Below are positions 5,411 to 53,123 of a stretch of DNA of 55,990 nucleotides, piece by piece (position 1 is the first letter of the stretch; each line of letters begins with the position of its first letter). The translations under genes were made by a program, and so were the position numbers. Origin of the DNA: an uncultured Nakamurella sp. Lineage in GTDB: Bacteria > Actinomycetota > Actinomycetes > Mycobacteriales > Nakamurellaceae. The stretch covers positions 1 through 55,990 of the forward strand of contig CAXSEW010000001.1 of NCBI GenBank assembly GCA_964236185.1. Direction: 5' to 3'. The notes below the pieces were generated by a model. That model was not told the origin of the DNA, searched no databases, and saw only the letters and a list, made by a program, of their open reading frames with translations.

Positions 5411-5421
5411 TCAGGGTCGAG

Positions 5422-27912: not shown

Positions 27913-27922
27913 CTGCTCATTA

Positions 27923-35008: not shown

Positions 35009-35240
35009 ATGACCGACACATTGCAGTTCAAAGGGGGCGGCACCACCACAACGCTCACAGTCCACGACGGCGGCTGCACCGGAACTTCATTCGTCACCAA
35101 GTCTCGGTCCTTCCCCGACCTCGAGGACACCGTGCTGCATGCCGAACTCGTCAAACTGCTCGAACTACCGGATTCGTACACCCAATATGGTAAACCAGCC
35201 GTCATGTGGTCTGTGACCGTGACGATGGTTCACGATGCTA
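35009..35240 (+). pseudogene. Short ORF running into the IS630 end
   Basis: The ORF reads across the CTAG junction and stops inside the IS. Confidence 0.4.
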
Positions 35241-36302: not shown

Positions 36303-36354
36303 GCATCATTGTCCCAAACACAACCGCCAAGCTATTTACGACACACCCTACTAG
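35238..36354 (-). mobile_element. IS630-family insertion sequence
   Basis: CTAG at both ends (35238-41 and 36351-54), weak terminal IRs (TAGTGGTCTGTG vs TAGGGTGTGTCG), transposase inside. Confidence 0.85.
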
Positions 36355-36490
36355 TGTCCGTAAACTCGTATCCGCATGCTCGGCGAGGTTATGAGACGTT
36401 GTAATACACGAGTCACGTGACACTTTCACCACCGCAACAACAGTCACTTTGCGCCCAACTGGTGCGACACCTGGATCGGTTACAACGCCG
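36355..36490. other. res-like site remnant 1
   Basis: TGTCCGTAAACTCGTAT, GTTATGAGAC and TGTAATACACGAG share motifs with 39175-39340 and 53268-53450. Confidence 0.5.
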
Positions 36491-36727
36491 ACGGCCTGTC
36501 GATTCCGGGTGAATCCTGACCCGGGTGTTCCTCGAACCCGCCCGGAACCAGTGGGTCCAGATTCAACCGGAGTTGACATGGCCGATGCCGCCGGCGCTCC
36601 TGGTGGAGCCGAATGGCTACTCAACGCTTGCCCGTAAACCGATCCGCGACTGGGCAGCCGTCCCCCCGGGTCGCGATGCATCGTTGATGGGTCCCTTGCT
36701 GTACGGCAAGCGCCGAAGGCAATCGAG

Positions 36728-36949
36728 CTACTTGCTGCGGTGCTGCCGTCGGGAGTACGAGATCCAGGTGATGACACCGCTGATGACGAACACCACGCCC
36801 ACGACCCAGCGGATGGCTTGCACACCTGACGAGCCTGATGTGAAAGGAATCGTGGCGAGCCAAGCGATGCCGACTACGAGGAAGATCGGACCGGTCCATC
36901 GGGCCCACCACTGCTGGAAAGCGGAAGGCCGGACTGGGCTTGAGGTCAC
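36728..36949 (-). CDS. Small two-TM membrane protein
   Basis: Two hydrophobic helices and a basic C-terminus. Confidence 0.55.
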   Translation of the reverse strand: MTSSPVRPSAFQQWWARWTGPIFLVVGIAWLATIPFTSGSSGVQAIRWVVGVVFVISGVITWISYSRRQHRSK

Positions 36950-36973: not shown

Positions 36974-37429
36974 ATGTACGGCAAGCGCCCGTCGACCACC
37001 CGCAGTTGGCCCCTGGCCTTCGGCTACGTCCGCGTCTCCACCGTCGACCAGGTCGAGAACGGCGCGAGCCTCGACGCACAGCGGATCGCCCTCATCGCCG
37101 AGGTCGACCGCCGCGGCTGGGAGCTCGAGCTTGTCGCCGACGAGGCCTGTCCATCAAGAACATGAACCGGCCCGCATTGCTCGCCGCGCTCACCCGGCTC
37201 GACCGCGGCGACGCCGACGCCCTGATCGCGATCCGGCTCGACCGGATCTCCCGGTCCGTCGCCGACTTCGCTGGCCGGCTCGACCGTGCCGGTCGCAAGG
37301 GTTGGGACTAGTCCTACTGTCGCCCGCGCTGGACCTCGCCGATCCAGCAGGCAGGTTCACCGCCAACGTCCTCGCCTCGGCCGCGCAGTACGAGCGCGAG
37401 CTGATCAGCGCCCACACTCGCGAGGGGAT
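36974..37429 (+). pseudogene. Serine recombinase (resolvase family), frameshifted and 3'-truncated
   Basis: GYVRVSTVDQ (catalytic Ser), SLDAQR, then other frames give NRPAL...IRLDRISRS and AGRFTANVLASAAQYERELISAHTREG; two frameshifts; homology ends at about 37428. Confidence 0.88.
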
Positions 37430-37707
37430 CGTCGATCGGTTCGGGGTTCGCTCGGTGGGACATCCACGCCTGGCAGGCTGGAGGAATTCTAAACACCGGT
37501 CGGAAGGCCGAATACGTCAACAACTCTGATCGGCTGCCCTTCGGTGGAGTAGGCGTACACGACGAGGAAGCCGGTTTGCTGCCCGGCGGCGCGACGGTCC
37601 GCTCGACCCTTGCGAGGGGCATGAGCGTGAAGCAAATACCGGTCGGCGGCTGTTGGGGTGGAACCTGCAGGTGGGCGGGCCACGTATGTAGGGGCGAAGG
37701 GGTGGTC

Positions 37708-38217
37708 ATGGCTGATCGAGATGGTTTCACCGCAGTGGTGCAGGACCGGCTGGTGCCGTGGCGGCGGATGGCATTTCTGATGTGCGGGGACTGGGCTCGG
37801 GCCGAGGACCTGGTGCAGACGGCGCTTCTGCGGATGTACGGCAAGTGGCACCGGATCGACCTGGCCGGTGTCGATGCCTACGCCCGGCGGGTGATCACTC
37901 GGCTGGCCATCGATGAATCCCGCCGCGCCTACCGCCGGTCGGAGGTGTCCGCTGCGGATCTGCCTGACCGCCCGGCCCTCGGCGACGAGGCGACCGCCGG
38001 GCTGGACGTCCGCGCGGCGTTGCAACGACTGTCTGCCTCGCACCGGGCCGTGCTGGTGTTGCGGTTCTACCTGGACCTTTCGATCGCCGACACCGCGGCA
38101 GCGCTGGGTGTCGGCCAGGGGACCGTCAAGTCCCAGACCTCACGTGGCTTGACCGCACTACGTGCCGCGATCGCACTCGACTCGCTTGCCTATCTCTCGA
38201 AGGAGCTCCCGCGATGA
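37708..38217 (+). CDS. ECF sigma factor (SigE-like)
   Basis: GDWARAEDLVQTALLRMY and HRAVLVLRFYLDLSIADTA..LGVGQGTVKSQTSRGL. Confidence 0.92.
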   Translation: MADRDGFTAVVQDRLVPWRRMAFLMCGDWARAEDLVQTALLRMYGKWHRIDLAGVDAYARRVITRLAIDESRRAYRRSEVSAADLPDRPALGDEATAGLDVRAALQRLSASHRAVLVLRFYLDLSIADTAAALGVGQGTVKSQTSRGLTALRAAIALDSLAYLSKELPR

Positions 38218-39128
38218 CCACCAATGAGGACGGCGGTGCCGGAATCGGCGAAGCGCTGCAACAGGCTTTCGGCGATGAACCGCCCTTGATGTTGAACGCC
38301 GGCGCCATCGCCCGGCAGGGCGCCCACGCGCTTCGCCGGCGTCGTGGGATGACCATCGGCGGGGCGGTCCTGGCAGTCGGCGTGCTGACCGCAGGGATCG
38401 CGGTAGGTGTACCTCGCATAGCTGGCACCGTCGGTACTGCCAGCGCGCACTCGGTACCCGGTTGCGGCGCCGTGGTCAGTACCGACGACCCGGCTGTCAC
38501 CGCCTGGCAGAACGGGACCTCCGCGTCTCCGACCGGACCGACGTCGTCGTTCGGCACCGAGGCGACGTCGTCGTCCTCCGACGCCGCAGCGACCGAAGCC
38601 AGCACGACATCTGCTGCAGTGGCAACCGGTCCGACCGACGTCTACGGGCAACCGGTACCGGCCTGGTTGACCAAGTCGAAGGCGACCAACATGGCGACCG
38701 CGTTCGCCGCGTCGATACCGACTGGCGTTCACTTGTCTGCGCCCGCCGCCTCCGCTCGGGTGCCGTTGCCCTTCGCTGCGGGCTCCCACTTGGCAGGTGG
38801 CGGCGTCGTCGTCTCGGCTGGCTCTGCCCGCGCATTCCTCAGCATCGACGTCCAGATGTGGGACAAGGGCGCTCCGCCGTGCACCGCCAACCTGGCTCAC
38901 CGGTACACCAGCGCGGACGGCAGCATCACCGACGTCATCGACGAACCGGGAACCAGTGAAACCGGGCACTACATGCTCGCCGAGTCCTACCGACCCGACG
39001 GAACATTGGTCAACGTCGGTCTCAACAACAGCGGCGGCATCGTGCCTCCGACCGCCAACCTGCCGCTCACCGTTCAGCAGCTCGCAGCAATCGCCGCCGC
39101 ACCCGCACTGGCCATCACCGCCGAGTAA
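38214..39128 (+). CDS. Single-pass membrane protein, probable anti-sigma factor
   Basis: ATGA-coupled to the sigma gene; RRRR then a TM; C-terminal YRPDG...LTVQQLAAIA, similar to 13730-14764. Confidence 0.72.
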   Translation: MTTNEDGGAGIGEALQQAFGDEPPLMLNAGAIARQGAHALRRRRGMTIGGAVLAVGVLTAGIAVGVPRIAGTVGTASAHSVPGCGAVVSTDDPAVTAWQNGTSASPTGPTSSFGTEATSSSSDAAATEASTTSAAVATGPTDVYGQPVPAWLTKSKATNMATAFAASIPTGVHLSAPAASARVPLPFAAGSHLAGGGVVVSAGSARAFLSIDVQMWDKGAPPCTANLAHRYTSADGSITDVIDEPGTSETGHYMLAESYRPDGTLVNVGLNNSGGIVPPTANLPLTVQQLAAIAAAPALAITAE

Positions 39129-39174
39129 GACTGCACTGGTGACGGCCGGAGTCGCCGCCGTTGTGTCTGATTGC

Positions 39175-39340
39175 TCGCGTTCATAGCTACATCCGTAAAG
39201 CAGCCGCACACGGATCATAAAATAGGACAAGCAAACGATGGAGTACGTGTCATTCCCGTTGCCTTGTAACGTAACTCGTGCACGAATGACTGACTACGTT
39301 GCGTTATAAAGTAACGCGTACACGAGTTGCGTTACACCGT
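39175..39340. other. res-like site 2 (AT-rich, nested inverted repeats)
   Basis: IR TGTAACGTAACTCGTGCACG (39265-84) / CGTACACGAGTTGCGTTACA (39317-36), 18/20; inner GCGTTA-TAAAG-TAACGC; CAAGCAAA shared with the 53.3 kb site. Confidence 0.6.
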
Positions 39341-39449
39341 GAAAGCCCCGTGACGCCAGCGGCATGACGCACAGCCGTCCGATAGAAGATCCGGGACCGC
39401 ACACCGCGAAGACTCCATTCAAGTCGACCCGGCCGCGCCCGCGGCTAGC

Positions 39450-39749
39450 TCAGCGGGAGGGGTCCACTCGCGCGTTATGGAGCCGGACTGGGATCACGAA
39501 GGCCACGAACAGCGGGACGATCGCCAGGGGAATCGCCCAGAGACCGACGGAACGCTGCTGAAGGCCGGCGCCTCCGAACACAGCGAGTACGAGCTCTGAG
39601 AAATAGGGCACCGCGATCCGCCAGTCCATGCGAGGCGAGTCGGCCCTTCGGAACGCGACTATTCGGCGATCCACGTTCAGACGATCAGACAGCAAGCCCG
39701 CGACGGCGGCCAGCAGCCAACCGCAGACCATCACCACCCAATCGACCAT
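39450..39749 (-). CDS. Small membrane protein
   Basis: Three hydrophobic segments; lies between the 39379 and 39786 sites. Confidence 0.55.
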   Translation of the reverse strand: MVDWVVMVCGWLLAAVAGLLSDRLNVDRRIVAFRRADSPRMDWRIAVPYFSELVLAVFGGAGLQQRSVGLWAIPLAIVPLFVAFVIPVRLHNARVDPSR

Positions 39750-39839
39750 CAGGCAAAGGCTAGCTCTGCCCGCACAGAACCGTCATCGGTCAGCGATCGC
39801 GTCTGTCGAGTCCCGTGGAGGTGTAGCTGCGCACAGCCA

Positions 39840-40067
39840 CTATGGGCGGCCGCCCTGCTCGCCGACGCGAGGCGTGAGAAGCGTCGTGAGCAATCCAGCC
39901 ATGAGGCAAACCAGGAATGCAACGGACCACCATGTGCCTCGCACCGTGATGGATAGAACGAAGAAGATAACGGTGAGCACCAGGAGGGCAAGAACGAACC
40001 TGCGTCGTGATTGAGACGACCGATCCCAGGCACTGCCAGGCCTAGGCCAACGTCGCGTCTTCCCCAT
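39840..40067 (-). CDS. Small two-TM membrane protein
   Basis: RRRFVLALLVLTVIFFVL...WWSVAFLVCLMAGLL. Confidence 0.5.
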   Translation of the reverse strand: MGKTRRWPRPGSAWDRSSQSRRRFVLALLVLTVIFFVLSITVRGTWWSVAFLVCLMAGLLTTLLTPRVGEQGGRP

Positions 40068-40303
40068 CGCGCGATCCTAAGCCGTGAGACCGCCGCCTCT
40101 TGGCGAAGGCCCTAGGTTCTTGTGTCGGAATCTGCCATGAAGCGGTCGGATGCCCACGCGGCGATGTTCGAAGGCGGAACGGTGACCGGACGGGATCCGT
40201 GACCGGTCTCGAGCGTTTAGGCGCGGATACCGTGCTCCGCGCGCGGACCGGGCCCGTACGCGAAATCGGCACTCGACTAGACCAAACGTGGGATGATACG
40301 AAC

Positions 40304-40657
40304 ATGCGCTTAACCGGCCCCCGACCGCCCCGCCAGCCGATTGATTGGTCGGCGACGCGTGCCGGCGACTGGTGGCCCCGCGTCGCACTAGTGGTCGTCG
40401 CGCTGGGGTTGACAGAACTTCCCAACACCTGGTGGTCATGGGGCCCGGTGATAGCTTGGGCCGCCGCCTGCAGCTTCGTGCCGGCACTCCCTAGAAAGTC
40501 GCTCGCCCCATCACCTGTGCCAGCTGGCCGCGATGAAGGCAACGTCGACGACAGCGTTCACTTAGCAGCGGATGCGACCGATCAGGAGCCGCCACTTTCC
40601 GCTGCGGAGTTCGAAGTCGTTTGGCAGCAAGCCAAGGAGTCTGGCGCACGAATTTAG
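40304..40657 (+). CDS. Small membrane protein
   Basis: Two TMs and an acidic tail; ATG downstream of the 40185 site. Confidence 0.5.
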   Translation: MRLTGPRPPRQPIDWSATRAGDWWPRVALVVVALGLTELPNTWWSWGPVIAWAAACSFVPALPRKSLAPSPVPAGRDEGNVDDSVHLAADATDQEPPLSAAEFEVVWQQAKESGARI

Positions 40658-40754
40658 GTGCGTTTAGGTCAGAAAGGCCTTCGAAGTCTCGCTGCCGTCT
40701 GCGTCGTATCGACCCGGTGCCACTGATCTAAGGGGTCGGTGGTGCCGGGCATGC

Positions 40755-41000
40755 GTGGAACTCGCGGAGGACCAGTACTGGATCACACCTCGGCCACTAG
40801 CCCCCGCAGGACCACTACGGATGGTCCTGCGGTGGCCCGAGCTGGGCATCGAGGAGACCGTCACCGAACTCGACGGCACTACGATCGCCGCCGCCGGCCG
40901 GGTCGCCGACGTTCTCTGGGCGCCAGAACCAGCCCTAGCACCACCTCGCTCACTGGCCCCACCGACCATCGGATGGTTCGCACAAGCCCTCCACCGCTGA
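40755..41000 (+). pseudogene. Probable C-terminal fragment of an actinobacterial hypothetical protein
   Basis: YWITPRPLAPAGPL...WPELGIEETVTELDG...LW resembles the C-terminus of longer proteins; the stop is followed by the 41011 site. Confidence 0.45.
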
Positions 41001-41205
41001 CCCATGATCACCGTTCAAGGATCGGTGTCAGGTTACGGACGGAGGGCCACTGAAGGGCAAGATCGCCGGGGCAAGGCCACCCATGATCACGGACTCGAGC
41101 GCGCCATATGGTCTGGCGAAGAACTCGGCGCTAGCGCCGTCGGGACGGCTGACGGCACCATGACACGAGACGGGAACCGAGCTGGCCTGTGCGCGTCCTC
41201 GGAAG

Positions 41206-41499
41206 GTGATCAACAAGCGCCGGCAGCGGCTGATGTGGCTGACCGGCGCGGCCCTTTCGGCCGGGTCCGGGGTGGTGATCATTGTGTTGGTTATCGTTCA
41301 CGCCCTTCAGGCCGAGTACGCCGAAGGGTTACGCGCCGATGCCACGGGAACCGCCGGTGGCGTCGGTACTGGTGGCGTGCCCTCGAATACTGGGCTGCTC
41401 ATTGGAGCCGCGCTGATCGCCGCAGTGCTCCTGGTTGTCCTGATGGCGCGCGCTTCCGGCTCAGCACGGGGCCGTCGATCAACGGGCCCCGCCAGCTGA
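41206..41499 (+). CDS. Small two-TM membrane protein
   Basis: Two hydrophobic helices with a Gly-rich loop; lies between the 41011 and 41532 sites. Confidence 0.55.
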   Translation: MINKRRQRLMWLTGAALSAGSGVVIIVLVIVHALQAEYAEGLRADATGTAGGVGTGGVPSNTGLLIGAALIAAVLLVVLMARASGSARGRRSTGPAS

Positions 41500-41541
41500 T
41501 CACCCGAGCCTGCAGAAGTACCCAGAACCTCCCGGTTGGCG

Positions 41542-41857
41542 ATCGCCCATCGGCGACCCCGCGGTGGCGCGCAAACCGAGATCGCATACCTATCACGGTG
41601 CTGCATGATTGCCAGCATGCCCGATGACACCCGAGAGCCGGCCAGTCTCCGCGACATGGGATTACGGATGAGGCCTGGGGATCGGTGGCCATTCGAGCCG
41701 CCTGCGCCCGAGCTGGGACCCGATGGCGGCGTAGACGCTCCGCTCGGGCCGAATCCGCCGCCAAGCCTCGCGAAAACGGCAGAACCACCTGACTCTTCGC
41801 CTGACCGGTAGTAGGGGCGGGAAGCCGGTGACCATGCGCGGATTACCGAGTGCCGAT
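41542..41857 (+). repeat. Module copy A (~316 bp) with a small Pro-rich ORF (41617-41811)
   Basis: Inverted homolog of 45716-46030; encodes MPDDTREPASLRDMGLRMRPGDRWPFEPPAPE... Confidence 0.9.
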
Positions 41858-42270
41858 CCCCGACCGGTGGTCGATGGGTATGGAGGAGCGCTGCAGTCAG
41901 GCCCTCGTCCGGGCCGATTGCGTGCTGTCATCGCCTGTCGGTCAAACCCGGTGGGCAACAATTGATCGATCCGCCGATCGTTGATCCGTCGGTTTGCGAC
42001 GATGATAGTCATTGGTGCAAAACGAGCGTCGACTGACGCATCTCGGAGGCCGATCGAACTGCACGGGGACGAGGCTCCACGGCCGCAGGCAGAACGGCTC
42101 GGAGATGCAACCTTTTTATCGAGGTGCCCGTCTGTCGATAGAAGGGAGAATCTTATGATTCGAACAGGTGTTGGTCCGGTCGCTCGATTAACGCCGGGAC
42201 TGATCAGCGCTGCCCTAGCCGGTGGCGTCGCTACGCCGGCCGCCGCCTGATGGTGCGGAAGGGTGCGGTG

Positions 42271-43131
42271 ATGCGTCGCTGGGTGCGGGGTGTGACGGCA
42301 TTCGTCGCCATTTGCGCCTCGGGCTGCGCGTCCCCCGTTGCGGTGTCTACACCGCCGGCGGCGACGGCGTCAGCCTCGGCAAGTGCGCCGGGCGAAGGCT
42401 CCTACGTGGGGGTGCACTGGATAGCGACCCAGGTGTCGATCAACAGTGTCACTCACTCGATCCCGACCGGTATGGCAGTCACCGTCGACTTCTTGCAGTC
42501 CAGGTCCGTTGTCTTCAGCGACGGCGTCAACGCGATCGACGCTCATTGGGCACCGCTGCCCGATGATGCCGTTCGCGTGGAGGACGCCCGCTCCAGCGCT
42601 GTCGGATATGTGGGCCGTGATGCCCAACAGCTCGCCGCTATCCTGGCAATCCAGCAGATCACCGCTCCCTCCCTTGCCGGCGAGTCAGCCGCTGAGATCA
42701 CAGTCACCCGCACTGGCGGCGTTCTCACGCTGGCGGGAAACACGGTGCAGATCTCCTACCGGAACGCCGGACCCACAGCACCTGAAATGACGCGATCCGC
42801 CCCCGCGACCACCAATCCAGCCGGCCCGTCGCCAGACCATGGACCCCTAGCGGCCTCGTCGGCGGCTGGTGACGTAGGAGCCGCGAAGCCCTATGACCTC
42901 CTCACCCACTGTGGAGTGAGGGAAGCTTTGATCAAGAACACCTACTACTTGGCCTCCCCGGTGCTCGACGACGGCAACGGGAACCCGCCACCGGGCTGGG
43001 GCAATCCGTACGACAGCGGCACGATCACCATCAACGCCGATAAGACGGCCGACTTTCGCGACAGCGCAGGGCACCAAGCCCACTTCGTCGTGCGGCCCGG
43101 CGCGAGAACCTGGCTCCGCGCCTGCGCATGA
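42271..43131 (+). CDS. Lipoprotein with a META-like domain
   Basis: Signal peptide with a lipobox-like ASGC; GVHW...DGVNAI; C-terminal LLTHCG...WGNP domain. Confidence 0.65.
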   Translation: MRRWVRGVTAFVAICASGCASPVAVSTPPAATASASASAPGEGSYVGVHWIATQVSINSVTHSIPTGMAVTVDFLQSRSVVFSDGVNAIDAHWAPLPDDAVRVEDARSSAVGYVGRDAQQLAAILAIQQITAPSLAGESAAEITVTRTGGVLTLAGNTVQISYRNAGPTAPEMTRSAPATTNPAGPSPDHGPLAASSAAGDVGAAKPYDLLTHCGVREALIKNTYYLASPVLDDGNGNPPPGWGNPYDSGTITINADKTADFRDSAGHQAHFVVRPGARTWLRACA

Positions 43132-43318
43132 CGGCCTGACTCCGCCCTATGCCTCAACCTTCGTGGCCAGGCCGAGGGGCGCGCCTGTAGTCGTTATCCA
43201 GTCGGTCGGGAGTGAGCTGCGCTGCGCTCGGATCCGTGCTGAACGGCGCAATTCGCTTTGCTTCGTCAGCCCGGAAGCGGATCGCTCTGTGGGCAGGACG
43301 CGACCATAGACTTCCGCG

Positions 43319-43578
43319 GTGGCCACGTTCCTCACTTACAAGCGGTGGCGTCTGCGCGACGGTGTGAATATGCAAACAGTGATCAATATGGTCCGCGATC
43401 GGATCGCCCCTCACTACGAGGTGCTAGATCCGACCGTTCGGCTGGGTCTCGAGCAGATCGACGGCGCTCAGGCGGTGTTGGCCACTCAGCGCTGGCTCAG
43501 TCGCGAACGTCGAGACCGGACGGTAGGGGAGCTACCTTCCAGGCATGGCTTGATGCATACCGTCCGCTCCTTGAATGA
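43319..43578 (+). pseudogene. Small hypothetical gene, probably frameshifted near 43530
   Basis: TFLTYKRWRL...ATQRWLSRERRD continues plausibly as ATFQAWLDAYRPLLE in another frame. Confidence 0.45.
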
Positions 43579-43866
43579 ATCGCCCCGGCTCGAGAAGCAT
43601 CGGCCAACGTCCAGCTACCTCACTACTAAGCAGATCGCGAACCCTATTGGCCCGTATCGATCACAACGGGCGCATCCCACGGGTGCCTGCCGGCTGGTCT
43701 ACGGAGTGTTAAGCCCTCGACAAGCGGCTACTAAAGCTGACTTGGCCAGAGACCGGATCTGCAGTCGATGTGGTCCGTCACGAACCGTATCTACTGCGGC
43801 GTCGGTGGTTCCGGGCGCGAACGTTTAAGAGACAGCTGACCGTCCGAACCACCCGGCTGGGCGTGA

Positions 43867-44217
43867 TCAGTTTGTTGGTCCCCAGGGCTGCGTCCGGAGT
43901 CGACGTTGGCTGCTGCCTTCTGCAAGAACCCAACCGTGGGCACTTAGCGGTAGCTCTTGGTACGTCCATCGGCCAGGGTCGTCCTGACGGAGACGGCGAT
44001 AACGGAACATGTCGTGCGCCAACGTGCGATGCGGCGTCTTTCCCTGCCTCACGTATAGCTTCACCTCAACGCGTTCGCCGTCGGAGGTGAGAACGGGAGC
44101 CCCGAGCCGATCGAGCAGCTGGGCAATTTGAGGCTCCCGCGCATCGGCGTCGGCCAGCAACGTTCGAACCACGGGTCTCACTCCTTTGCTGTAAGAAACC
44201 ACCGAACTCCTCATCAC
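43867..44217 (-). CDS. Hypothetical protein
   Basis: ORF with a plausible composition; no motif recognised. Confidence 0.35.
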   Translation of the reverse strand: MMRSSVVSYSKGVRPVVRTLLADADAREPQIAQLLDRLGAPVLTSDGERVEVKLYVRQGKTPHRTLAHDMFRYRRLRQDDPGRWTYQELPLSAHGWVLAEGSSQRRLRTQPWGPTN

Positions 44218-44333
44218 TCTAAAGGTGGTGCGGCTGCCCGACCAGCGTTGCGTTCCGCCATTTGCGCGACCCAGGCCTACGTCGCGGTGTTCTAGGACGC
44301 CACTGACACCCCTACGGTTCTCGAAGAGCGGAT

Positions 44334-44681
44334 CTATCCGGCCTGCGCGCTTCGAATGCGTCCGTCGTCGCCGTACTCGACGCGCACTCGTGTGGGCGCG
44401 CCGTCCAGAGTTCCCAGGTTCGGCCGTACGGTGCGACCCTGCTCAGCAGCTAACGCCTCCGCCTCCGTGCAAGTCAGTCCGATGTACGGCTCAACCGGCA
44501 ACTGTCGGATGGCCTCGAAGCGGGCGCGTCTGGTCTGCGGGGCTTCTCTTGATGCGATCGACTTGACAGCCGGCATGGGTGAGACGGAGCGACGACCCGC
44601 GTCCCCGACCTTCTCTTGCTCCACCATGGCACCAAGTATGGGAGGTACCCGATAACTGGCATCTTCGGGTAGCCGACTCAA
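44334..44681 (-). CDS. Small protein with a peptidase inhibitor I78-like C-terminus
   Basis: YIGLTCTEAEALA...RTVR...TLDGAPTRVRVEYGDDGRIRSAQAG. Start uncertain. Confidence 0.5.
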   Translation of the reverse strand: MSRLPEDASYRVPPILGAMVEQEKVGDAGRRSVSPMPAVKSIASREAPQTRRARFEAIRQLPVEPYIGLTCTEAEALAAEQGRTVRPNLGTLDGAPTRVRVEYGDDGRIRSAQAG

Positions 44682-45091
44682 ACTGGCGGAGACGCCGTCC
44701 AGAAGCTGACAGCCGACCGGTCAGCGATCGGTAACCGGAACGGATCCGTGTCCGGCGGCGTTGTAGCCCGACCGGGTTGCCAATCCGTGCATCTATCTAA
44801 GGTGACTGTTACTCCCTCCGGCTTGCGCCCGACTGCGTGATAGGTCTTGATCGCTTCTTCGCTGCACTGTTCGGTAACCAGTCAGCCGGCTTAAGGTTGT
44901 TCGAGGCCACGCGCATCGTCGCTGCATCCTCGTAGCGCCCGGATACCGGGTGACCGCCGTTCGCCGGGGCGTTCACGTTCTCATCCGGAGGCTGGACGGC
45001 GCCGGGGTCAAGAAGCTGCAACCGATTCCTCTGCTGCTACGTCCTGGTACGTCACGGCCGGTGAGAGCGGTTCCAAAGATTAGGAGGTCCG

Positions 45092-45511
45092 ATGCGTGGC
45101 CGACCGGTGCAGATCATCAGCGGGCTGGTGTGCCTCTTGATCGTGCCCGGTTGCGGGCGCCAGGTCGCGCCGCCCTCCCCATCGGTCACCAGCCAATCAG
45201 TTGCGAGCCGACCACTTGCCGGCACGCAGTGGCTGCTCGATGCATCAAAGGCCACCCTGTCGATTACTGGCACCCAACTCAGTGCGACCAACGGGTGCCA
45301 AGAACTGGACGCCACGGTGGCCGTGCAGGGCAGCTCGCTGGAGCTCACCGACGTCCGGTTATCGGCCGGCCCGTACTGCCCGCAGGTTGACGTGCCCGGC
45401 CAGACCGTCTTCCAGGTGCTGACCACCGACTCAGTGTCGTGGAACGTGCAGGTCAACCGTTTGACGGTGACCAACGCTCGCGGACTCGCGCTGCACTATC
45501 GGGCCGGCTGA
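45092..45511 (+). CDS. META-domain lipoprotein
   Basis: Lipobox-like VPGC; LAGTQWLL, NGCQ, and a second Cys (YCP). Confidence 0.68.
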   Translation: MRGRPVQIISGLVCLLIVPGCGRQVAPPSPSVTSQSVASRPLAGTQWLLDASKATLSITGTQLSATNGCQELDATVAVQGSSLELTDVRLSAGPYCPQVDVPGQTVFQVLTTDSVSWNVQVNRLTVTNARGLALHYRAG

Positions 45512-45715
45512 TCGACTCGTTCAGCAACGGGCCCGCAAGTTTCCGACGCCAGGTCGCCACCCGCTGCCCGGCCGCTGCAAGATCGGCCCAGCCAGTCTGT
45601 CGTCCCCCGGGGTGAACGCTTCGGGGTCAACGCCGCGGCCGGCAAGCAAGGCGGTGAACTACCGCACACCGCCCTCATACGCGCGGGCGGTGTGCGGGCT
45701 CATGGTGCCCTCACC

Positions 45716-46030
45716 ATCGGCGCTCGGTTATCCGCGAATGGTCACCGGCTTACCCGGCACCAACTACCGGTCAGGCGATCAGTCAGGTGGTTCTGCCGAT
45801 TCCGCAAGGCTTGGCGGCGGGTTCGGTCCGACCGGAGCGTCCACGCCGCCATCGGGTCCCATCTCGGGTGCAGGCGGCTCGAATGGCCACCGATCCCCAG
45901 GTCTCATCCTTAATCCCATGTCGCGGAGACTGGCTGGCTCTGGGGTGTCATCGGACATGCTGGCAATGATGCAGCACCATGACAGGTCACGCGATCCGGG
46001 TTGCGCGCCAGCGGGTCGCCGGTGGGCGAT
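45716..46030 (-). repeat. Module copy B (~315 bp) with a small Pro-rich ORF (ending 45779)
   Basis: Inverted homolog of 41542-41857; encodes MSDDTPEPASLRDMGLRMRPGDRWPFEPPAPE... Confidence 0.9.
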
Positions 46031-46163
46031 CCATGACCGGTGACGCCCGAGGGGTGCAACTTGCCGCCCCATCTTGCTGTTCCGACCGCTGGGCGATGAG
46101 GCTCCAATCGCCGCCTCTCGAAGGACAGTTGTCGGGCCGCCCACTGGGCCTGCACACTGGCCA

Positions 46164-46371
46164 CATGGGAAGAACGCACGAGGTCTCTGGCATAGAGGGC
46201 CTGCCGATCTATCTGGTCTCGGCTGAACAGCCGTGGATCATCAGCGAAGACGACTTCATCGATGGTGTCCCGCTTGGCGACCTCATGAAGCGGCTCACCC
46301 CCGGCGAGCACCTCTACCTCGTCGACTACGCCAGTGACCCCGCCCGCACCAAGCTCACCTGCCTGATCTGA
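46164..46371 (+). CDS. Small hypothetical protein
   Basis: Globular-looking C-terminal part of ORF 45979-46371; lies between the 46019 and 46432 sites. Start uncertain. Confidence 0.45.
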
Positions 46372-46606
46372 GCGGCCGACAACAGCCGGCCGACCCCTGA
46401 GCACGCAGCGACGCTGCTGCTAACGGAACGCCCGAAAGCCGATCGTCTGCCGGTCAGCGTTCCCCATCAGACACACCAGCGCCAGGTCTGACTGAGTCCG
46501 TGGTCGCCCGCCGGCACAAGTTAGACCGGGTCAGGATTCACCCGGAATCGACACGGGTCGTTTCAGATGCGCAGTTCGTACCCCGACTGACATCGGTCAT
46601 GGGTCG

Positions 46607-46873
46607 GTGGCCGAGCTTGACATCCGGTTTCCAAACAGCATGGTGTGGTTTGATCCAGGCGTGATAGGCGATGCATCGGCGCAAGCCACTCCCGAGCCTC
46701 AGCCGCCGGCTCCACTTCCGTGGTGGCGACTGGCTCTGGGTGTTCTTGGAGGAGTGGCCGTTTTCCTGCTCGCGTCGCTTGTGCGAGGCAACTTCAGCTG
46801 GATTAGCCTCGTCGGAGCCATCATTGCGACAGCTGCCGGTATCGCCTATATGGCATGGCGACGTAGGCACTGA
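46607..46873 (+). CDS. Small two-TM membrane protein
   Basis: WWRLALGVLGGVAVFLL...ISLVGAIIATAAGIAYMAWRRRH. Confidence 0.55.
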   Translation: MAELDIRFPNSMVWFDPGVIGDASAQATPEPQPPAPLPWWRLALGVLGGVAVFLLASLVRGNFSWISLVGAIIATAAGIAYMAWRRRH

Positions 46874-47085
46874 GTTCCAGCTCCGTAACCGCGACCCAAG
46901 GAGCGGGGCAGCCCGCAAGGCGAACGCTGATCGGTCGGGTCCGTCAGAGCACTGATGGTGGCGAACAATCCGCTGCTGGTGAACGCTGTGGGATCGGAAC
47001 CGAGCCGTCAGGCCTGACTTGCTGAAACCGGCTTCCGAAGTCGGCGTCAAGCTGGTGAGGGTGGTCGACCATGCTGCGCGACGGC

Positions 47086-47400
47086 TCAGTGGTCGGGTGA
47101 CCGCTTCGGCACTGAAACGACATCCGCGGTAATCCGGACCCGGTCGCCAGCACGGCAACGATGAATCAACGAGGTCGTGGACGATGAGAGAAGCCACAGT
47201 GCGACCGCTAGGGATACCCAGAACAGCCAATCCAGGTGCTCATGGTTGACGAGGTTGACGACGAGAAAAAAGAGCACGAGCACAATGACACCGGCGCTTT
47301 GCGCTGCCGGGGTGAGCTTGAGGTCGCGTCTACGCCCGTTCAACCAGATCTTCATGAGCAGATGATGCGTCATCCGGGGCCTCAGGGGTGCTCGTTTCAT
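47086..47400 (-). CDS. Small two-TM membrane protein
   Basis: Two hydrophobic helices. Confidence 0.45.
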   Translation of the reverse strand: MKRAPLRPRMTHHLLMKIWLNGRRRDLKLTPAAQSAGVIVLVLFFLVVNLVNHEHLDWLFWVSLAVALWLLSSSTTSLIHRCRAGDRVRITADVVSVPKRSPDH

Positions 47401-47543
47401 GGCAGCGGTGCTTCAGCAACGTAGTGAACGTGGCCGTGCCGTCTCGGTGAAGGCCCACATCGCCACCGTCACCGATTGACGATCGGTGACCGGGACCGCA
47501 ACAACTGGGCAGGCCCGCCCTCGCGACAGGTGCTCAGGCGCGC

Positions 47544-47780
47544 TCAGAATGGACTGGCCGCGCCGCCATCGGCGAGACCGCGGCGTACGGATGCCACCCA
47601 ATCTTCCCAACGTGCTGGGTCGGAATGAAGGTACTGCAGGAAGAGATTGAGCGGCTCCGACGGGGTCTGCTCAAGGGACGCGTAGAGGTCCACCATGTAG
47701 AAGGCGGCCCGGAACGCCTCATCGAGCGTCAGTGAATCGGGCAGGTCGTCCGCCACTGTCGGCCTGGGGAGATCGGTCAT
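47544..47780 (-). CDS. Small acidic protein, toxin-immunity-like
   Basis: LTLDEAFRAAFYMVDLY...SDPARWEDWVASV; bracketed by the 47472 and 47841 sites. Confidence 0.6.
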   Translation of the reverse strand: MTDLPRPTVADDLPDSLTLDEAFRAAFYMVDLYASLEQTPSEPLNLFLQYLHSDPARWEDWVASVRRGLADGGAASPF

Positions 47781-47908
47781 GACCTCAGATTGCCACCGCT
47801 AACCGTTCCGCGGGTGATCAAGTTCAACCCGGGCGATGACCCGGTCGGCGATCGGCAACCGGTCGGCAATCGGCTCGCGCCGTGTGGGGCCCGTTGGGTT
47901 GCTGCGCC

Positions 47909-48922
47909 TCAGACGATGTGGTCAGCATCGCGGGTGGGGAAGCGAGCGTTCGCTCCTGCTGTGATGGCCCGGGTTGCGATGAACACGACGAGCGGCGTGA
48001 CTACAAGCAGGGTCCACTTCGACAAGTCGAGATCACCTCGAGGGCCTGACTGCCCCGTGAGGTTGTTACCCAGGTCGCCGGCCAGTCCGTAGGACAGGTA
48101 CTTCGCGGCCACCATGAATGCCGCCAGACCCGCGCCGATCGGCAATACCGCCCGTCCCACAGCGCTTCTGAGTGCCGCAACTCCGGCGGCGAGCGCGAGC
48201 AGCGCAACTACCAGCGACAGCCAGGAGAGGTAACCGGTCGTTCCGGTTGATAGCTGGAGGTGATTGGAAACTGAGACCGCCAGGCCAGCGCAAACTGCGG
48301 TCACCCCGATCGCCGCGGCCCACCACCGCCTCACCTGGGATCGCCCGCGGACGACCCAGGCCGGTGAGGCCAACGCGATTGCTGCGATCACCTGCACGCC
48401 GAACCAGCCCAACGCGTTGGTCACGGTCTGGAAGTTGTGATCGGCGTACTCGACGACCTGAGCGGCCAGGTATGCGGCCACGCCGAGCGCCGCGGGCCAC
48501 CGCGCCCACGACGGACGCCCGAACAGGCACAGCAGGGCCGTCACGCACCACAGCAGCCATGCTGGGATGTCAGCTCCGAACGGCAAGTTTTCCATCCCGA
48601 ACCCGCCGACCTGCGCGTCGATGTACAGGGCGGTGGCAGCGGGGAAAAGCAGCAGCATAGGCAGCACGACGGCGAGTAGTCCCATCGCGTCCCGCGCCGC
48701 CGCAGGCGCCGGGGACATCATCCGCCACGCCCACGTGCGGACGCTGAACCGCAGCAGCGCAACAGATTCTGCCGGCGATGGGCGACGCTGTCCCGGATCG
48801 GCCCGTTCCATTAGTACGTCCACCAGCTCCCGCCCCCGGGACCGCCGGTAGCTCGGCGGGAACAGCCACAACAACCGGCTGTAGGACCGCTCCAACCGCG
48901 CGTGTGGATCGACGGTGCTCAT
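47909..48922 (-). CDS. Multi-TM membrane protein (PadR partner)
   Basis: LERSYSRLLWLFPPSYRRSRGRELVDVL N-terminus typical of PadR-linked membrane proteins; many TMs. Confidence 0.8.
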   Translation of the reverse strand: MSTVDPHARLERSYSRLLWLFPPSYRRSRGRELVDVLMERADPGQRRPSPAESVALLRFSVRTWAWRMMSPAPAAARDAMGLLAVVLPMLLLFPAATALYIDAQVGGFGMENLPFGADIPAWLLWCVTALLCLFGRPSWARWPAALGVAAYLAAQVVEYADHNFQTVTNALGWFGVQVIAAIALASPAWVVRGRSQVRRWWAAAIGVTAVCAGLAVSVSNHLQLSTGTTGYLSWLSLVVALLALAAGVAALRSAVGRAVLPIGAGLAAFMVAAKYLSYGLAGDLGNNLTGQSGPRGDLDLSKWTLLVVTPLVVFIATRAITAGANARFPTRDADHIV

Positions 48923-49254
48923 GCCAGCAGTCCCTTCCCCGTAGCCAGCCGCGACAGTGCCAGCTCGGCCTGCCGGGCGGAACGCTGTGCTTCCTGGGCC
49001 AGCCGGGACGCGCCGGCACTGGAGAGTCGGTAGTACCGACGCAGCCGCGAATCCACCACTTCTTCGTGGTCGAACTCGATCAGGCCCTCCCCGGCCAACC
49101 GGTCCAACGCCCCGTACAGCGTCCCCACCCGCAGCACCACCGCCCCATCGGACTGGGCCAGCACATCCTTGATGATCCCGTACCCGTGCCGCGGTTCACC
49201 GGCCAGCGCACTCAAGATCAGAAACGACGCCTCGCGCAACCTAACCTCTGCCAT
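48919..49254 (-). CDS. PadR-family transcriptional regulator
   Basis: FLILSAL..EPRHGYGII, GTLYGALDRL, RRYYRLS. Confidence 0.92.
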   Translation of the reverse strand: MAEVRLREASFLILSALAGEPRHGYGIIKDVLAQSDGAVVLRVGTLYGALDRLAGEGLIEFDHEEVVDSRLRRYYRLSSAGASRLAQEAQRSARQAELALSRLATGKGLLA

Positions 49255-49490
49255 CGCAGCACCATATATCGAGTAGCGGAGTATGCCAAGAGGTGGCACT
49301 GCGGCTGCTCGACGAATCGACGACCGGTCAACGGTCGGCAACCGGTCGGCATTACTTGCGCTGCGGTGTTGCCGGCCGGAGACCGGTTGAGGTGTGGAGA
49401 TGCTGTCGTGGAACCACGATGGCGCCGGTCAGTGCTGCGACCTTCCAGGGTGTTGAGGCCCTCTAGCCCGCCGTGGGTTAACGTCCGGCG

Positions 49491-50438
49491 GTGATGCATC
49501 GACAACGGGTGGGCCTGATTGTCATCTGCTCGGCTGTGCTGCTGGTTGCGGTGATTACGGGTTTGCGCCCGGACCGCGTGGCCGGTGTCGCTCAGGCCAC
49601 TGCGGTCGCGGGGCCCCCGGCAGTGGGTGAGTGCGTGGTGGACCCCCTGCCGAAGCCGCAGTTGGGTGTTACTGCTCCAGTCCTGGCTAACTCAGGTGGC
49701 ACCGTCCCGGTGTATCCGGCGCAGCAGATCCAGCCGTGCACCGGAGCCCGCTACGGCGAGATCACCGCTGTCATCGCCGCACCAAAGCCCACCGTGGTCA
49801 CGGGCGACGACACCGACGGCCGATTCTTAGACGACCCCAACGAAGGCAGCTGCTCCGAACCCGCGCAGCGGTATCTGGGTACGACAACGGAGCCGACCCA
49901 AAGTTTTTGGCAGGGCCGGATACTGCAGTTCAGCGTTGCGTTGTCCAGACCCTCGACACGTCAGGAGGCGGCCGGACAGCGGTGGGCGGCGTGCATCGTG
50001 ACCCTGCCGGCTTCCGACCAGGCGTCCGCTCCTCCGCGGTATGGCAGTTCTTTGCGCGATGCAGTGCACACCGGCCGGTACCGCGACCAACTCGGCGACT
50101 GCATATCAAACTTTGACTGGGACGGCGGACTGATCAGCTGCACCCAGCTCCACCTACTCGAAGTGATGGGCTGGGGTGACAGCGGCGATCATCCGGTCAC
50201 CGGCGCGCAGTTGGAGTCGAGCTGCCAGCAGCTGGTCCGCCAACTGACCGCCATGCCCGATCCGACCGCCGGCGGCGCGCTGTCCATCCAGATCGGAGTC
50301 AAGGAAGGGAACCGCATCGCTATCCGCCCCTCGCAGGTGCCGGCCCACTCGGCTGTTTCGTGCGGCGTCACTACCGCCAACCGCGAACTTCGCGGCAGCC
50401 TGCTGGGACTGGGCCGACAGCCCATCCCCTGGGCGTAG
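49491..50438 (+). CDS. Secreted Cys-rich septum-formation-family-like protein
   Basis: Signal/TM, PAVGEC, PCTGARYGEI, AGQRWAAC, SCTQLHLLEV; lies between the 49324 and 50488 sites. Confidence 0.7.
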   Translation: MMHRQRVGLIVICSAVLLVAVITGLRPDRVAGVAQATAVAGPPAVGECVVDPLPKPQLGVTAPVLANSGGTVPVYPAQQIQPCTGARYGEITAVIAAPKPTVVTGDDTDGRFLDDPNEGSCSEPAQRYLGTTTEPTQSFWQGRILQFSVALSRPSTRQEAAGQRWAACIVTLPASDQASAPPRYGSSLRDAVHTGRYRDQLGDCISNFDWDGGLISCTQLHLLEVMGWGDSGDHPVTGAQLESSCQQLVRQLTAMPDPTAGGALSIQIGVKEGNRIAIRPSQVPAHSAVSCGVTTANRELRGSLLGLGRQPIPWA

Positions 50439-50713
50439 GCGTCGCATATCGCTGCCGTGGGTGTCGGTGTCGTCCAGATGCTGCATGCCGAAAGCCGATC
50501 GCCGACCGGTCAGCGTCCGCTGATCCATCGGTGACCGGCTGCTGATCCCAGAACTAGAGTTCTGGACTGCCGAACTCCGGTCGCCCTCGCCACCGGCTCA
50601 GCGACGACCACGAGGCGGGAGGTGGCTTGCGACGGGACTCGACCTTACCTAGCCGCGGCCGGCGAGAAATCTGGAAGGCGACATCGCAGCTGCGCCAGGA
50701 GGCACGTGAACGT

Positions 50714-50947: not shown

Positions 50948-51258
50948 TTATTGACGCATCGCGAGACGGCCTGAGTTCCAGGCCACTCTGGCACACCTAA
51001 ACTTTCTGCTCTGCGGTGGCGCCCTGTAGACGTCGTCCGCATGCGGGGCTGCCCGTCTCAACTCCGGTTGAATCTGGACCCACTGGTTCCGGAAAACCCG
51101 GGTCAGCCTTCACCCGGAATCGACAGCCCGCGAGAGAAACGGGGTCTTAGCCTGGAGCCGATAGACCAACGACAGCCGGTAACGCCGGGACCCGCCAGGG
51201 TCGCAACTTGCACGCGCGTCCCACAGCACCCGTCCGGTGACGCATCCCGCAGAGGTAC

Positions 51259-53123
51259 GGCGAATTTTAACGGTCGACGCAACAATAATAGCTTGGATTG
51301 TTCGGCGTGAATGTAGTGCACGTTCGCTCGCGGTGTCTATCTTTGCTGCTCAGGCGGTTCTCGACGCCGCGCGGAAACGGGTGGCAGGGGTCTGGTAGTC
51401 GAGGGTCTTTCGTGGTCTGTCGTTGAGTAAGCATGTAATGGCGGTGACGTGCTCGTGGCTGTGTTGGGAAAGGTCGGTGTTCTTTGGGAAGAATTGTCGA
51501 GCAAGGCCGTTGAAGTTCTCGTTTGCGCCCCGCTGCCAGGGGCTGCTGCGCTCGGCGAAGTAGATCTTCAGGCCGGTGGCTGCGGCGAGCTCCTTGTGGC
51601 GGGCCATCTCGGTGCCCTGGTCCCAGGTGAGCGTGCGCGCCAGGTGCGGTGGGAGCTGGGCGAACGCCTGCTGCACCGCGGCGTTCACGGTCAGCGCGGT
51701 GTGATCGCGAGGCAGGTTGACGATGATCCCGTAGTGGGTGACTCGTTCCCGCAGGGTGATCATCGCCGACGTCGAACCGGCCCCGATGATGAGGTCTCCC
51801 TCCCAGTGCCCGGCTTCGATGCGGTCCTGGACCTTCGCCGGCCGGTCGCTGATCATGGTCATGTTTCGGACAGCCCCGTCCTTGCGGGAGCGGGTGTTCG
51901 CGTGTGAGCGGCGCAGCTTGCGGCCAGTGCGGAGCTTGGCGGTATAGCGGCTGTGCAGGCACCGAGTGCCCGGGACGATCAACGCCCGGTAGATCGTCTC
52001 GGCGCAGACGGTGCGGGCCAGCTCGTCGGGATGCTGCGCGCGTAGCCACCCGGCGATCTGCTGGGGCGACCAGTACCTGTTGAGCTTGCGCTGGACGACG
52101 TCGCGTAGCCGGGCGTCGGTGAGCAGCTTGAGCTCGCGGGGTCGCCGGCGTTGCTGCTTGGCTGCCTGCTCTGCCTGGTGGGGCTGGTAGCGGCTCTGTT
52201 CGTCGCTGTGCCGGTGCAGCTCGCGGCTGATCGTGGAGGGGGAACGGCCGAGCTGCGTGGCGATCGCCCGCAAACTCAGCCCGTGCCCGCGCAGGTCCGC
52301 GATCTGCAATCGCTCCAGCAGCGTGAGATACCGGCCGACTCCAATCGGCTGTTCAGCACGCTTAGCGGGGTCGCCGCGGCGCCGGATGTTCCGGCCGGTT
52401 CTGGGGTGCAAGTTCATGATCTTGCAAGCCTCGGTGTTGCTGTGGCCCTGGCCGATCAACTGCCAGTAGCGGGCGTGTCGGGCCTGCCTGGCTGTGCTGC
52501 CGCGCGGCTGCAACAGCTCCTGCGCGTGCCGCGCCGCGCTGACGACGGCGTCGTGATGGGCTGCGCGGGCGGCGCGCTGAGCTCCTGCCAGTGCCCGGTG
52601 TCGTTCGGCCTCCCACCGCTGCGCCCGGTCGGCGTCCAAGCGCAGCCCTCGGGCTGCCAAACGCACCGGCACCCGGTCCTGGCGCAGCTGCACGAACCTG
52701 CGCTGCAGCCAACGGTAGCCGGTGGACCGACCGACCCCGGCCACGCCGGCGGCGGCCAGCAGCGACTCGCCGCGCTCATAGGCGCACCAGAACACCGCCT
52801 CCACCCCCGTCGGACGCCGCAAGTGATGCCGACCCTCGCCCGCGCACCGGGCGTTGTCCCAAGCCGGCATCAACGACGATACGAAGCCGAGGGAATCCTG
52901 CGCCTCGAGCATCGTCGAGCCGGCGGCACGCAATTCGTTGAATGCCTCACGAACCCAGCGCCGAGCCGTTTCCTTACCGACTCCGGCCGCGCGGGCGGAC
53001 TTTGTGAGACTCCGCCCCTGGCTCAAAGAGGAGAGCAGACGAACTCCTGCAGGCGAATCCCTCTGTAAATGCACCGACACCACACCTTAAGTTCGGGTGT
53101 TGCGTCGGTCACTAGAACTCGCG
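51259..53123 (-). mobile_element. IS30-family insertion sequence
   Basis: 26-bp imperfect IRs (GGCGAATTTTAACGGTCGACGCAACA / TGTTGCGTCGGTCACTAGAACTCGCG, 19/26), flanked by GTAC at 51255-58 and 53124-27. Confidence 0.88.
51350..53083 (-). CDS. IS30 transposase with an extended multi-HTH N-terminus
   Basis: LGRSPSTISREL, WSPQQIA, GHWEGDLIIG, TLTWDQGTEM and PWQRGANENFNG. Confidence 0.93.
   Translation of the reverse strand: MVSVHLQRDSPAGVRLLSSLSQGRSLTKSARAAGVGKETARRWVREAFNELRAAGSTMLEAQDSLGFVSSLMPAWDNARCAGEGRHHLRRPTGVEAVFWCAYERGESLLAAAGVAGVGRSTGYRWLQRRFVQLRQDRVPVRLAARGLRLDADRAQRWEAERHRALAGAQRAARAAHHDAVVSAARHAQELLQPRGSTARQARHARYWQLIGQGHSNTEACKIMNLHPRTGRNIRRRGDPAKRAEQPIGVGRYLTLLERLQIADLRGHGLSLRAIATQLGRSPSTISRELHRHSDEQSRYQPHQAEQAAKQQRRRPRELKLLTDARLRDVVQRKLNRYWSPQQIAGWLRAQHPDELARTVCAETIYRALIVPGTRCLHSRYTAKLRTGRKLRRSHANTRSRKDGAVRNMTMISDRPAKVQDRIEAGHWEGDLIIGAGSTSAMITLRERVTHYGIIVNLPRDHTALTVNAAVQQAFAQLPPHLARTLTWDQGTEMARHKELAAATGLKIYFAERSSPWQRGANENFNGLARQFFPKNTDLSQHSHEHVTAITCLLNDRPRKTLDYQTPATRFRAASRTA

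Follow-up and report, generated by a model that had tools for sequence, protein, structure and literature searches.

Integrons use attC sites, and serine invertase systems (Gin/Hin/Cin, Min, Mpi) flip fixed segments in place. The gene array described here, which lies in a 55,990-nucleotide stretch of an uncultured Nakamurella sp. (contig CAXSEW010000001.1 of assembly GCA_964236185.1; hereafter the window), carries short palindromic sites of 22 bp, to which its module ends map. Among the systems closest to it, res, the target of the Tn3 and gamma-delta resolvases, is one 114-bp unit with three dimer sites, whose accessory sites the wild-type enzyme requires (passages of PMC2602789 and PMC9943657). 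For phiC31 integrase, 2-bp overlaps must match and symmetric overlaps join in both orientations (passages of PMC3936721), and for dif modules a two-crossover route by way of a cointegrate has been modelled (passages of PMC13141974). On the basis of comparative sequence analysis, we propose that a family of small Tn3-type serine resolvases probably uses the 22-bp sites as stand-alone crossover points and that the sites bound reorderable modules.

The initial annotation of the window had listed twelve 22-mers, all of which lie where it placed them, among some 20 short open reading frames (ORFs) of mixed orientation, 14 of which are called by a codon model between 36.7 and 50.5 kb. Allowing up to three mismatches to the consensus, the window contains 13 matches, ten of them inside the array, against 1.14 expected from shuffled sequence, and none of 100 shuffles reached 13. 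Sites were scored with a matrix retrained on 90 sites of other genomes that had been chosen with the window's first matrix and are thus only partly independent; matches of at least 12 bits were taken as full sites, with cut-offs of 10 and 14 bits for looser and tighter counts. The retrained matrix reads CCG(G/A)TC(A/G)N(C/G)G-AT-C(G/C)N(T/C)GA(C/T)CGG and identifies 13 full sites in 36.3-51.3 kb and none in 1-35.2 kb, in agreement with the earlier remark that none had been noticed in the left 35 kb; at 10 bits, the counts are 16 and one. Beyond the earlier list we found full sites at 36632 and 46913, weaker ones at 40168 and 43271, and half sites at 37418, 39786, 40185, 41864, 44734 and 49306. 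The array had been delimited as 37418..50538, of which the right end stands (50488..50538), whereas the left-most site, at 36632, lies outside that range. Elsewhere in the 80% complete assembly, the 98 contigs that reach 10 kb or more (1.44 Mb together) yield nine matches of at least 14 bits, and the remaining multi-match contigs are small (C475, C498, C305, C221 and C213; here and below, C denotes contigs of the window's assembly, G relative genomes, L fetched loci and X metagenome runs). The motif is thus clustered in the genome and not evenly spread.

The sites respect gene borders. None of 15 window sites falls inside a called gene, and in 12 arrays only 10 of 171 sites do so, against 55% expected; within NCBI-annotated loci the figure is 2 of 30, against 72% expected, and on the Rhodococcus opacus plasmid pROB01 all 16 sites lie outside NCBI genes. 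Sites also occur between convergent 3' ends, both in the window (39379 and 46913) and in L239 (2378, 8306 and 11458). Past the 22 bp, the flanks of array sites are unconserved, with identities of 0.25-0.32 in random pairs. An Rfam scan of 33-56 kb, covering Rfam families and not an attC model, detected no family, and module ends map to the 22-bp site; no gathering-level match was obtained in 15 loci of the resolvase family, and the window returned one match at chance level. Promoter and terminator scans gave counts at or below chance (two promoter-like matches, with 2.2 expected), the window scan found no tRNA genes, and none of 22 window cargo proteins matched PADLOC.

Comparison of modules with their relatives revealed that homology ends at the central dinucleotide of the site, as had been anticipated. 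Outer flanks are unrelated in 32 of the 33 site pairs whose inner flanks are homologous, and identity at variable positions drops from 0.79 in the inner arm to 0.44 in the outer arm, the random level being 0.43; this set excludes identical arms that came from overlapping fetches, and two of its pairs are redundant (a tandem self-match and a duplicate locus). In a larger set of 36 pairs, the same step falls between positions -2 and +3. Alignment ends fall within 15 bp of a site centre in 48 of 240 cases, as opposed to 1.6% for random points. Within the window, the module at 41542-41857 and its inverted copy at 45716-46031 match from AT to AT, and three homologues of the PadR module (47841-49345) sit beside different neighbours in G066. 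On pROB01, a 973-bp module is duplicated with zero mismatches from position -2 of one centre to position +3 of the next. Furthermore, an independent metagenome run (X2) presents window modules reordered and inverted, with one contig carrying 44716-45707 reversed (one difference), then 37656-39124, then 41080-41451, and a second contig holding 46034-46444 internally, while a piece in X3 stops at 50500 and one in X4 starts at 47850. On this comparative evidence, modules have been exchanged between replicons at matching sites, and the 22-bp sites are almost certainly crossover points.

When the centre was left unscored, two classes of site were prominent, centred on AT (315) and on AA/TT (131). 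The earlier statement that all listed sites but 49324 keep the central AT misses the second class, to which 46913 belongs. Paired module ends have the same centre in 31 of 36 pairs (26 AT/AT and five AA or TT), and in none is AT paired with AA/TT; the remaining five consist of four pairs of AT with GT/AC, involving two sites, and one pair that is an accessory site. Between partners only the central 2 bp match, positions -3 and -2 being at the random level. Partners therefore share a 2-bp overlap, as targets of serine recombinases do, and the pattern fits the enzyme class originally proposed, which we regard as very likely. By analogy, the overlap rule of phiC31 integrase may carry over to the 22-bp sites.

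In the mechanism that we envisage, a dimer would bind both 10-bp arms, cleave the DNA flanking the two central bases and exchange the halves, such that two sites with the same centre would recombine. Symmetric AT sites could join either way, resulting in deletion, integration or inversion, which would explain the mixed gene orientation (33 same-strand and 31 opposite-strand module neighbours), whereas AA/TT sites would join their own class only and in one direction. Modules with one AT end and one AA/TT end occur in two contexts (L082/L084, L136/L143 and the pROB01 duplicate), and simple circle excision does not explain them; two crossovers, through a cointegrate and its resolution, would do so and may be how they move, independent change of each neighbour being a possible alternative. 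We also identified 96 overlapping double sites, 18 bp apart and sharing CCGG, among them 31 AT+AT, 26 AA-then-AT and one AT-then-AA, which might act as adapters between the centre classes. Crossover at the shared CCGG was considered and rejected, because positions -2 to -7 are at the random level.

A hairpin-like repeat at 45638-45710 also occurs on C526, L061, X2, X4 and X5, and modules break there too. An element 96-97% identical between copies begins at a TT-centred site at C182 7605 and C341 4986 in the window's genome and at L072 16128 in G052. Two 18,314-bp contigs, L021 (G022) and L112 (G060), share the same site at 1282 and possibly represent a shared element.

The distribution of the sites was surveyed in 77 genus genomes, 300 other class genomes, viral stretches and 12 plasmid loci; the genus and class tallies include the unpublished G054, G117 and G297 as single rows, and the conclusions are independent of them. 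The strict pattern is present in 33 of the 77 genus genomes, the richest having 22, 13, 12, 9, 7 and 6 copies (reversed control, 0), and in 29 of the 300 class genomes, almost always as a single copy. Viral stretches contain 16 single matches and no arrays, and one phage record carries the 195-amino-acid (aa) enzyme described below. Dense arrays are found in G092 (30 sites in 40 kb), G076 (21 in 40 kb), G066 (L061, 16 in 14.5 kb) and G052 (L072, 14 in 20 kb), and on Rhodococcus plasmids, where they surround the recombinase and are unannotated (pROB01, L239 988-14105, 16 sites; pRHL1, L240 4215-14330, seven sites); a 2.1-kb piece of the G092 array had no match in the plasmid collection. Among 117 modules shorter than 3 kb (median 797 bp), 46 contain one called gene, 23 two, seven three and 41 none, and operon pairs are kept whole within modules. 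Outside the window the cargo includes GNAT, methyltransferase, glyoxalase, MFS, PIN, PemK, serpin, sigma factor, toxin-antitoxin and uncharacterised proteins.

A 195-aa resolvase emerged when 4444 ORFs from loci with sites were clustered all-versus-all; it has a Resolvase domain, its catalytic serine and a C-terminal HTH_7 domain. Its closest solved structures are Gin and gamma-delta resolvase, and its closest named records are from Nakamurella (L121; P0001); intact members include P0001 and WP_012687005.1, the latter encoded on pROB01 of R. opacus B4. The family comprises at least 5769 proteins at E <= 1e-60 and occurs on plasmids, Proteobacteria genera included (478 records in all); existing annotation files the enzyme as 'recombinase family protein' and leaves the sites unannotated. 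Two groups of genes, both keeping the YARCS motif, differ in the placement of sites, counted here at a lenient score. In the res group, an AA-centred site lies near -142 in 15 of 22 genes, with a second site over the promoter; in the leader group, a TT-centred site lies downstream in 47 of 62 genes, mostly at about 105-125 bp, and an upstream AT site is present in 19. On a quick version of the family tree, the leader group forms a single branch (support 94) with one res-type row inside. A res-like layout, with a crossover site followed by accessory sites, is found only upstream of one of the two groups, and array sites are without it.

The promoter-proximal site of the res group has the same arms as the array sites, and homology runs through it in all 19 pairs that are alike on both sides. 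Since the arms are shared and homology is continuous, this site appears to be bound and not crossed, and it provides a control by which binding can be told apart from crossover and which links the arms to the 195-aa family. In the window, the site at 46913 joins a res-type arm to a cassette-type arm, and in many arrays the 195-aa gene is itself a site-bounded module. Loci around 79 family genes, selected, like the 12 plasmid loci, by the 195-aa protein alone and blind to sites, contain 67 sites in 1.11 Mb against two in a reversed-sequence control that is lenient for a palindrome. Site densities per 100 kb are 8.9 at leader, 3.8 at res, 1.0 at other and 0 at non-family loci. Site counts in the 12 plasmid loci are 16, 7, 4, 3, 3, 2, 1, 1, 0, 0, 0 and 0, and the two loci with dense arrays are both from Rhodococcus. 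Co-occurrence looks sharper for copies at least 85% identical (four of five genomes against five of 72), a figure biased because the query came from an array. A Tn3 transposase adjoins a family member on pAG1 and another lies near H3; none appears in the annotation of the pROB01 array, and in the window's genome the one Tn3 transposase is broken and lies on a different contig. The 195-aa family is likely the actor on these sites, and the window array would then be an orphan on which the enzyme acted in trans.

Among L122-L196, genes of the leader group also share a conserved GC-rich leader (75 bases ahead of the recombinase start), which has no Rfam match in the loci scanned; 36 of 57 genes have a short hairpin in it, with some compensatory variants. 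As a structured RNA the leader is a weak candidate, and we rejected it: RNAalifold kept four pairs, the median z was -0.87 and two of 57 fell below -2.

Several observations weigh against the 195-aa family as the actor. No further site was found at four of the 12 plasmid loci, nor within 8 kb at 35 of the 62 loci of the leader group and 14 of the 22 of the res group. Co-occurrence in the genus is non-significant (9 of 17 genomes with at least two strict sites against 20 of 60, p = 0.16), and across the class the association is modest (5 of 16 genomes against 24 of 284, p = 0.012, with kin not independent). Each of the three family copies in the window's genome is truncated or broken or sits at a contig edge, and the 80% complete assembly yielded no intact one. 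The 22-bp site is shorter than the 28-bp site I of Tn3, and passages of PMC2602789 state that wild-type Tn3 resolvase does not recombine site I alone, while mutants do. Because the wild-type enzyme needs accessory sites, activity on lone sites is the weakest step of the proposal, and an enzyme working without them is its least certain element; the chances of a dedicated, accessory-site-free cassette system seem to us about even. Regarding the breakpoints, 80% of alignment ends lie elsewhere than at sites, the break at 44716 falls at the outer edge of its site, the junction at 45716 is read through in X2, two window junctions (37418 and 45706) have one non-consensus arm, and no circular intermediates were seen in the contigs, the only material available for this comparison. 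Finally, three site-rich genomes, G022 (12 strict sites, 99% complete), G060 (13) and G071 (4), all lack a family member at more than 45% identity.

These three genomes are what would be expected if the sites were real crossover points of another serine recombinase and the 195-aa gene a passenger module, as are the site-bounded state of that gene and the existence of more distant resolvases (36-38% identical) with weak look-alike upstream sites (L104 and L101). We consider this unlikely, given that the family's own upstream and promoter-proximal sites have the same arms, that no other recombinase family recurs beside arrays in the all-versus-all clustering, that the sole Resolvase-domain match of G022 lies within a 554-aa frame, and that three non-family resolvase loci, a small sample, contain no sites in 33 kb. 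Alternatively, the same enzyme could make the joins and the arrays be debris, accreted by off-target events at res-like sites with no selected system behind them. The setting of the arrays among insertion sequence (IS) elements and broken genes, the window join at 37428, which falls inside a gene, the 41 modules with no called gene and the lack of a common promoter or orientation all speak for such debris; the respect for gene borders, the 76 of 117 modules holding one to three genes with operon pairs intact, the recurrence of identical or near-identical modules in new contexts and a single arm consensus from Nakamurella to Rhodococcus make it quite improbable. Far less probable still is that the palindrome is a repeat of the repetitive extragenic palindrome or miniature inverted-repeat transposable element type, or a transcription-factor operator, with joins by microhomology. 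A GC-rich palindrome with single strict matches in class genomes and in viral stretches without arrays could suggest as much, but the sites are clustered and not dispersed, lie between convergent 3' ends and lack an Rfam match, and the reassortment of their halves at one fixed position already largely refutes it. A tyrosine recombinase (Xer or IntI) or an IS110 bridge recombinase is scarcely credible as the actor: tyrosine recombinases are many in all five genomes tested, IS110 occurs in three of the five and AT-to-AA modules resemble pdif module exchange, but only the central 2 bp match, leaving no shared 6-bp spacer like that of pdif (passages of PMC13141974), the integron integrase model TIGR02249 scores above cut-off in none of the five genomes, and IS110 (PF01548) was not found in G066 or in G092 (87% complete), which have the largest arrays.

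Resolvase-mediated exchange at the 22-bp sites remains the reading we prefer. The parts of the array are listed in Table 1.

Table 1. Sites, modules and genes of the array, in window coordinates
Feature	Coordinates	Strand	Basis or remark
22-bp site, AT centre	36632..36653		Left arm of res-site-I type; left-most site; 18.0 bits
73-aa membrane protein, cargo	36728..36949	-	ORF list, codon model
Broken serine recombinase gene of another family, three frames, cut at AT	36974..37429	+	Resolvase matches; homology to L071 stops at 37429
Hybrid site: recombinase coding sequence, AT, consensus right arm	37418..37439		Right half 15.9 bits, left half -3.2
SigE-family sigma factor and 304-aa partner (likely anti-sigma), two-gene module	37702..39128	+	TIGR02983 above cut-off; other order in X2
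Weak site, AT, between convergent gene ends	39379..39400		10.1 bits
99-aa membrane protein, cargo	39450..39749	-	Homologue in G011
Half site (left arm and AT)	39786..39807		13.4 bits
75-aa membrane protein, cargo	39840..40067	-	ORF list
Weak AA site (40168) overlapping half site (40185)	40168..40206		Matrix
81-aa ORF	40755..41000	+	C498 homologue stops at same site
Site, AT	41011..41032		20.5 bits; breakpoint against C498
97-aa membrane protein, cargo	41206..41499	+	ORF list, codon model, metagenome-run comparison
Site, AT; left end of duplicated module	41532..41553		Comparison of copies
316-bp module, 89% identical to inverted copy 45716-46031	41542..41857	+	Each end at an AT
Site, AT, with overlapping half site 18 bp on (41864)	41846..41885		Matrix
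293-aa lipoprotein-like ORF, cargo, without family match	42250..43131	+	ORF list, family search
Site, AT, weak right arm	43271..43292		G052, X2 and X3 homologues start here
ORF, 5' part (to ~43575) common to other genomes	43319..43828	+	Homology
116-aa ORF	43867..44217	-	Homologue in G011
115-aa ORF, without family match	44334..44681	-	ORF list, family search
Strongest site, AT, with adjacent half site (44734)	44717..44755		31.3 bits; joint in X2
META-domain lipoprotein (PF03724)	45092..45511	+	Module 99.9% identical, inverted and relocated in X2
Inverted copy of 41542-41857 module	45716..46031	-	Outer arm at 45706 non-consensus
Site, AT	46019..46040		Breakpoint on either side
68-aa ORF	46165..46371	+	Module 46034-46444 site to site within X2 contig
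18-bp double site, AT then TT	46432..46471		Matrix
88-aa membrane ORF, cargo	46607..46873	+	ORF list
AA-centred hybrid: left arm res-site-I-type, right arm cassette-type	46913..46934		14.4 bits; res-type consensus
104-aa membrane ORF, cargo	47086..47400	-	ORF list
Site, AT	47472..47493		28.7 bits
78-aa ORF	47544..47780	-	Homologue in G013
Site, AT, with degenerate second site 18 bp on	47841..47880		Left end of PadR module
PadR regulator (PF03551) and 337-aa membrane protein	47909..49253	-	Three homologous copies in G066, other contexts
Site, GT centre	49324..49345		AT in homologous C475 site
Septum_form-domain protein (PF13845)	49491..50438	+	Family common among modules
Two sites (50488, 50517), both AT; right end of array	50488..50538		Matrix; X3 piece stops at 50500

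The serine recombinase relics at both ends of the array, which the initial annotation had put forward as a lead to the enzyme, were rejected as its source. Intact homologues of the left relic (L070 and L071) have no sites in 40 kb, and the homology between this relic and L071 stops at the half site's AT, which marks the relic as a target. Next to the right relic is an AT-rich res-like site whose sequence type is different, and over 42 aa this relic shows only 36% likeness to the 195-aa candidate. AT-rich res-like sequences of that different type lie at 36350-36473, 39159-39336 and 53268-53450 and are repeated on many contigs and in relatives. Short elements with IS21-type end pairs are located at 36497-36578 and about 51055-51125, in opposite orientation on either side of the array, with a lone end at 46526-46553; these ends match those around istA/istB-like ORFs in L075. 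The inverted repeats at 36.5 and 51.1 kb were rejected as the ends of one composite element, each resembling a separate IS21-derived miniature element. IS630 (35238-36302) and IS30 (51350-53083) transposases flank the array, and X3 and X4 contigs skip IS30. Elsewhere in the window, 343-10488 encodes a Tad/Flp-like cluster (SAF, ATPase, T2SSF and three TadE/G) followed by a 1219-aa LysM protein, and the lower-GC region 19495-30128 encodes a DNA methylase with a type III restriction subunit, a 563-aa protein with multiple helix-turn-helix motifs, an AAA ATPase and LigD.

The evidence is evenly balanced on a broader proposal, that these arrays may form a third natural type of gene-cassette system, next to integrons and pdif modules, in which a resolvase lineage freed of res-site control would use lone 22-bp sites of two orthogonal overlap classes (symmetric AT and polar AA/TT) with 18-bp adapters, its own gene being a module, across Actinomycetota. 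Our literature search, which had subscription papers and supplements outside its reach, found no description of such resolvase-site cassette arrays. If the proposal is correct, a gene-shuffling system of Actinomycetota has been invisible to annotation, and the 22-bp matrix would be a usable marker for module arrays and their mostly uncharacterised cargo. The accessory-site gating of resolvases has so far been studied through engineered mutants (passages of PMC2602789); it would also be put to the test by a small serine recombinase that naturally acts on lone short sites, and such an enzyme could offer a compact tool for DNA rearrangement.

With the serine invertases, the arrays would share a small serine recombinase acting at several short sites, Gin being the closest solved structure; here, in contrast, modules with no relation to one another have been acquired, lost, duplicated and passed between genomes and genera, and the Mpi model reaches 49 bits, below its cut-off of 272. 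The early description of the locus as integron-like, though neither a classical integron nor a pdif array, is apt in spirit: as in integrons, modules of one or two genes stand in arrays, their cargo including GNAT, methyltransferase, glyoxalase, toxin-antitoxin and uncharacterised proteins, and arrays persist in genomes without the enzyme. It fails in that no fixed attI-like insertion platform, common orientation or common promoter was found, IntI is lacking in all five genomes, the recombinase gene is one of the modules and the two ends of some modules differ in centre. With Tn3 and gamma-delta, the candidate family shares the Resolvase and HTH_7 architecture, a Tn3 transposase neighbour on pAG1 (compare passages of PMC2602789 and PMC9943657) and, in one enzyme group, a res-like arrangement in which a crossover-type site lies upstream and others cover the promoter; it differs in that tens of lone 22-bp sites bound cargo and the array-associated group has no upstream res layout. 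The pdif modules of Acinetobacter plasmids, which depend on XerCD, have distinct XerC and XerD arms and a 6-bp spacer, as opposed to palindromic arms, a 2-bp overlap, two centre classes and a candidate serine resolvase that is itself a module. They share with the present arrays small accessory modules between short recombination sites, inversions, deletions and single-module exchange via cointegrates at matching centres, an enzyme not bound to one platform, and even the empty module (all according to passages of PMC13141974). The system described here works most like pdif modules, yet falls outside the definition of a pdif site.

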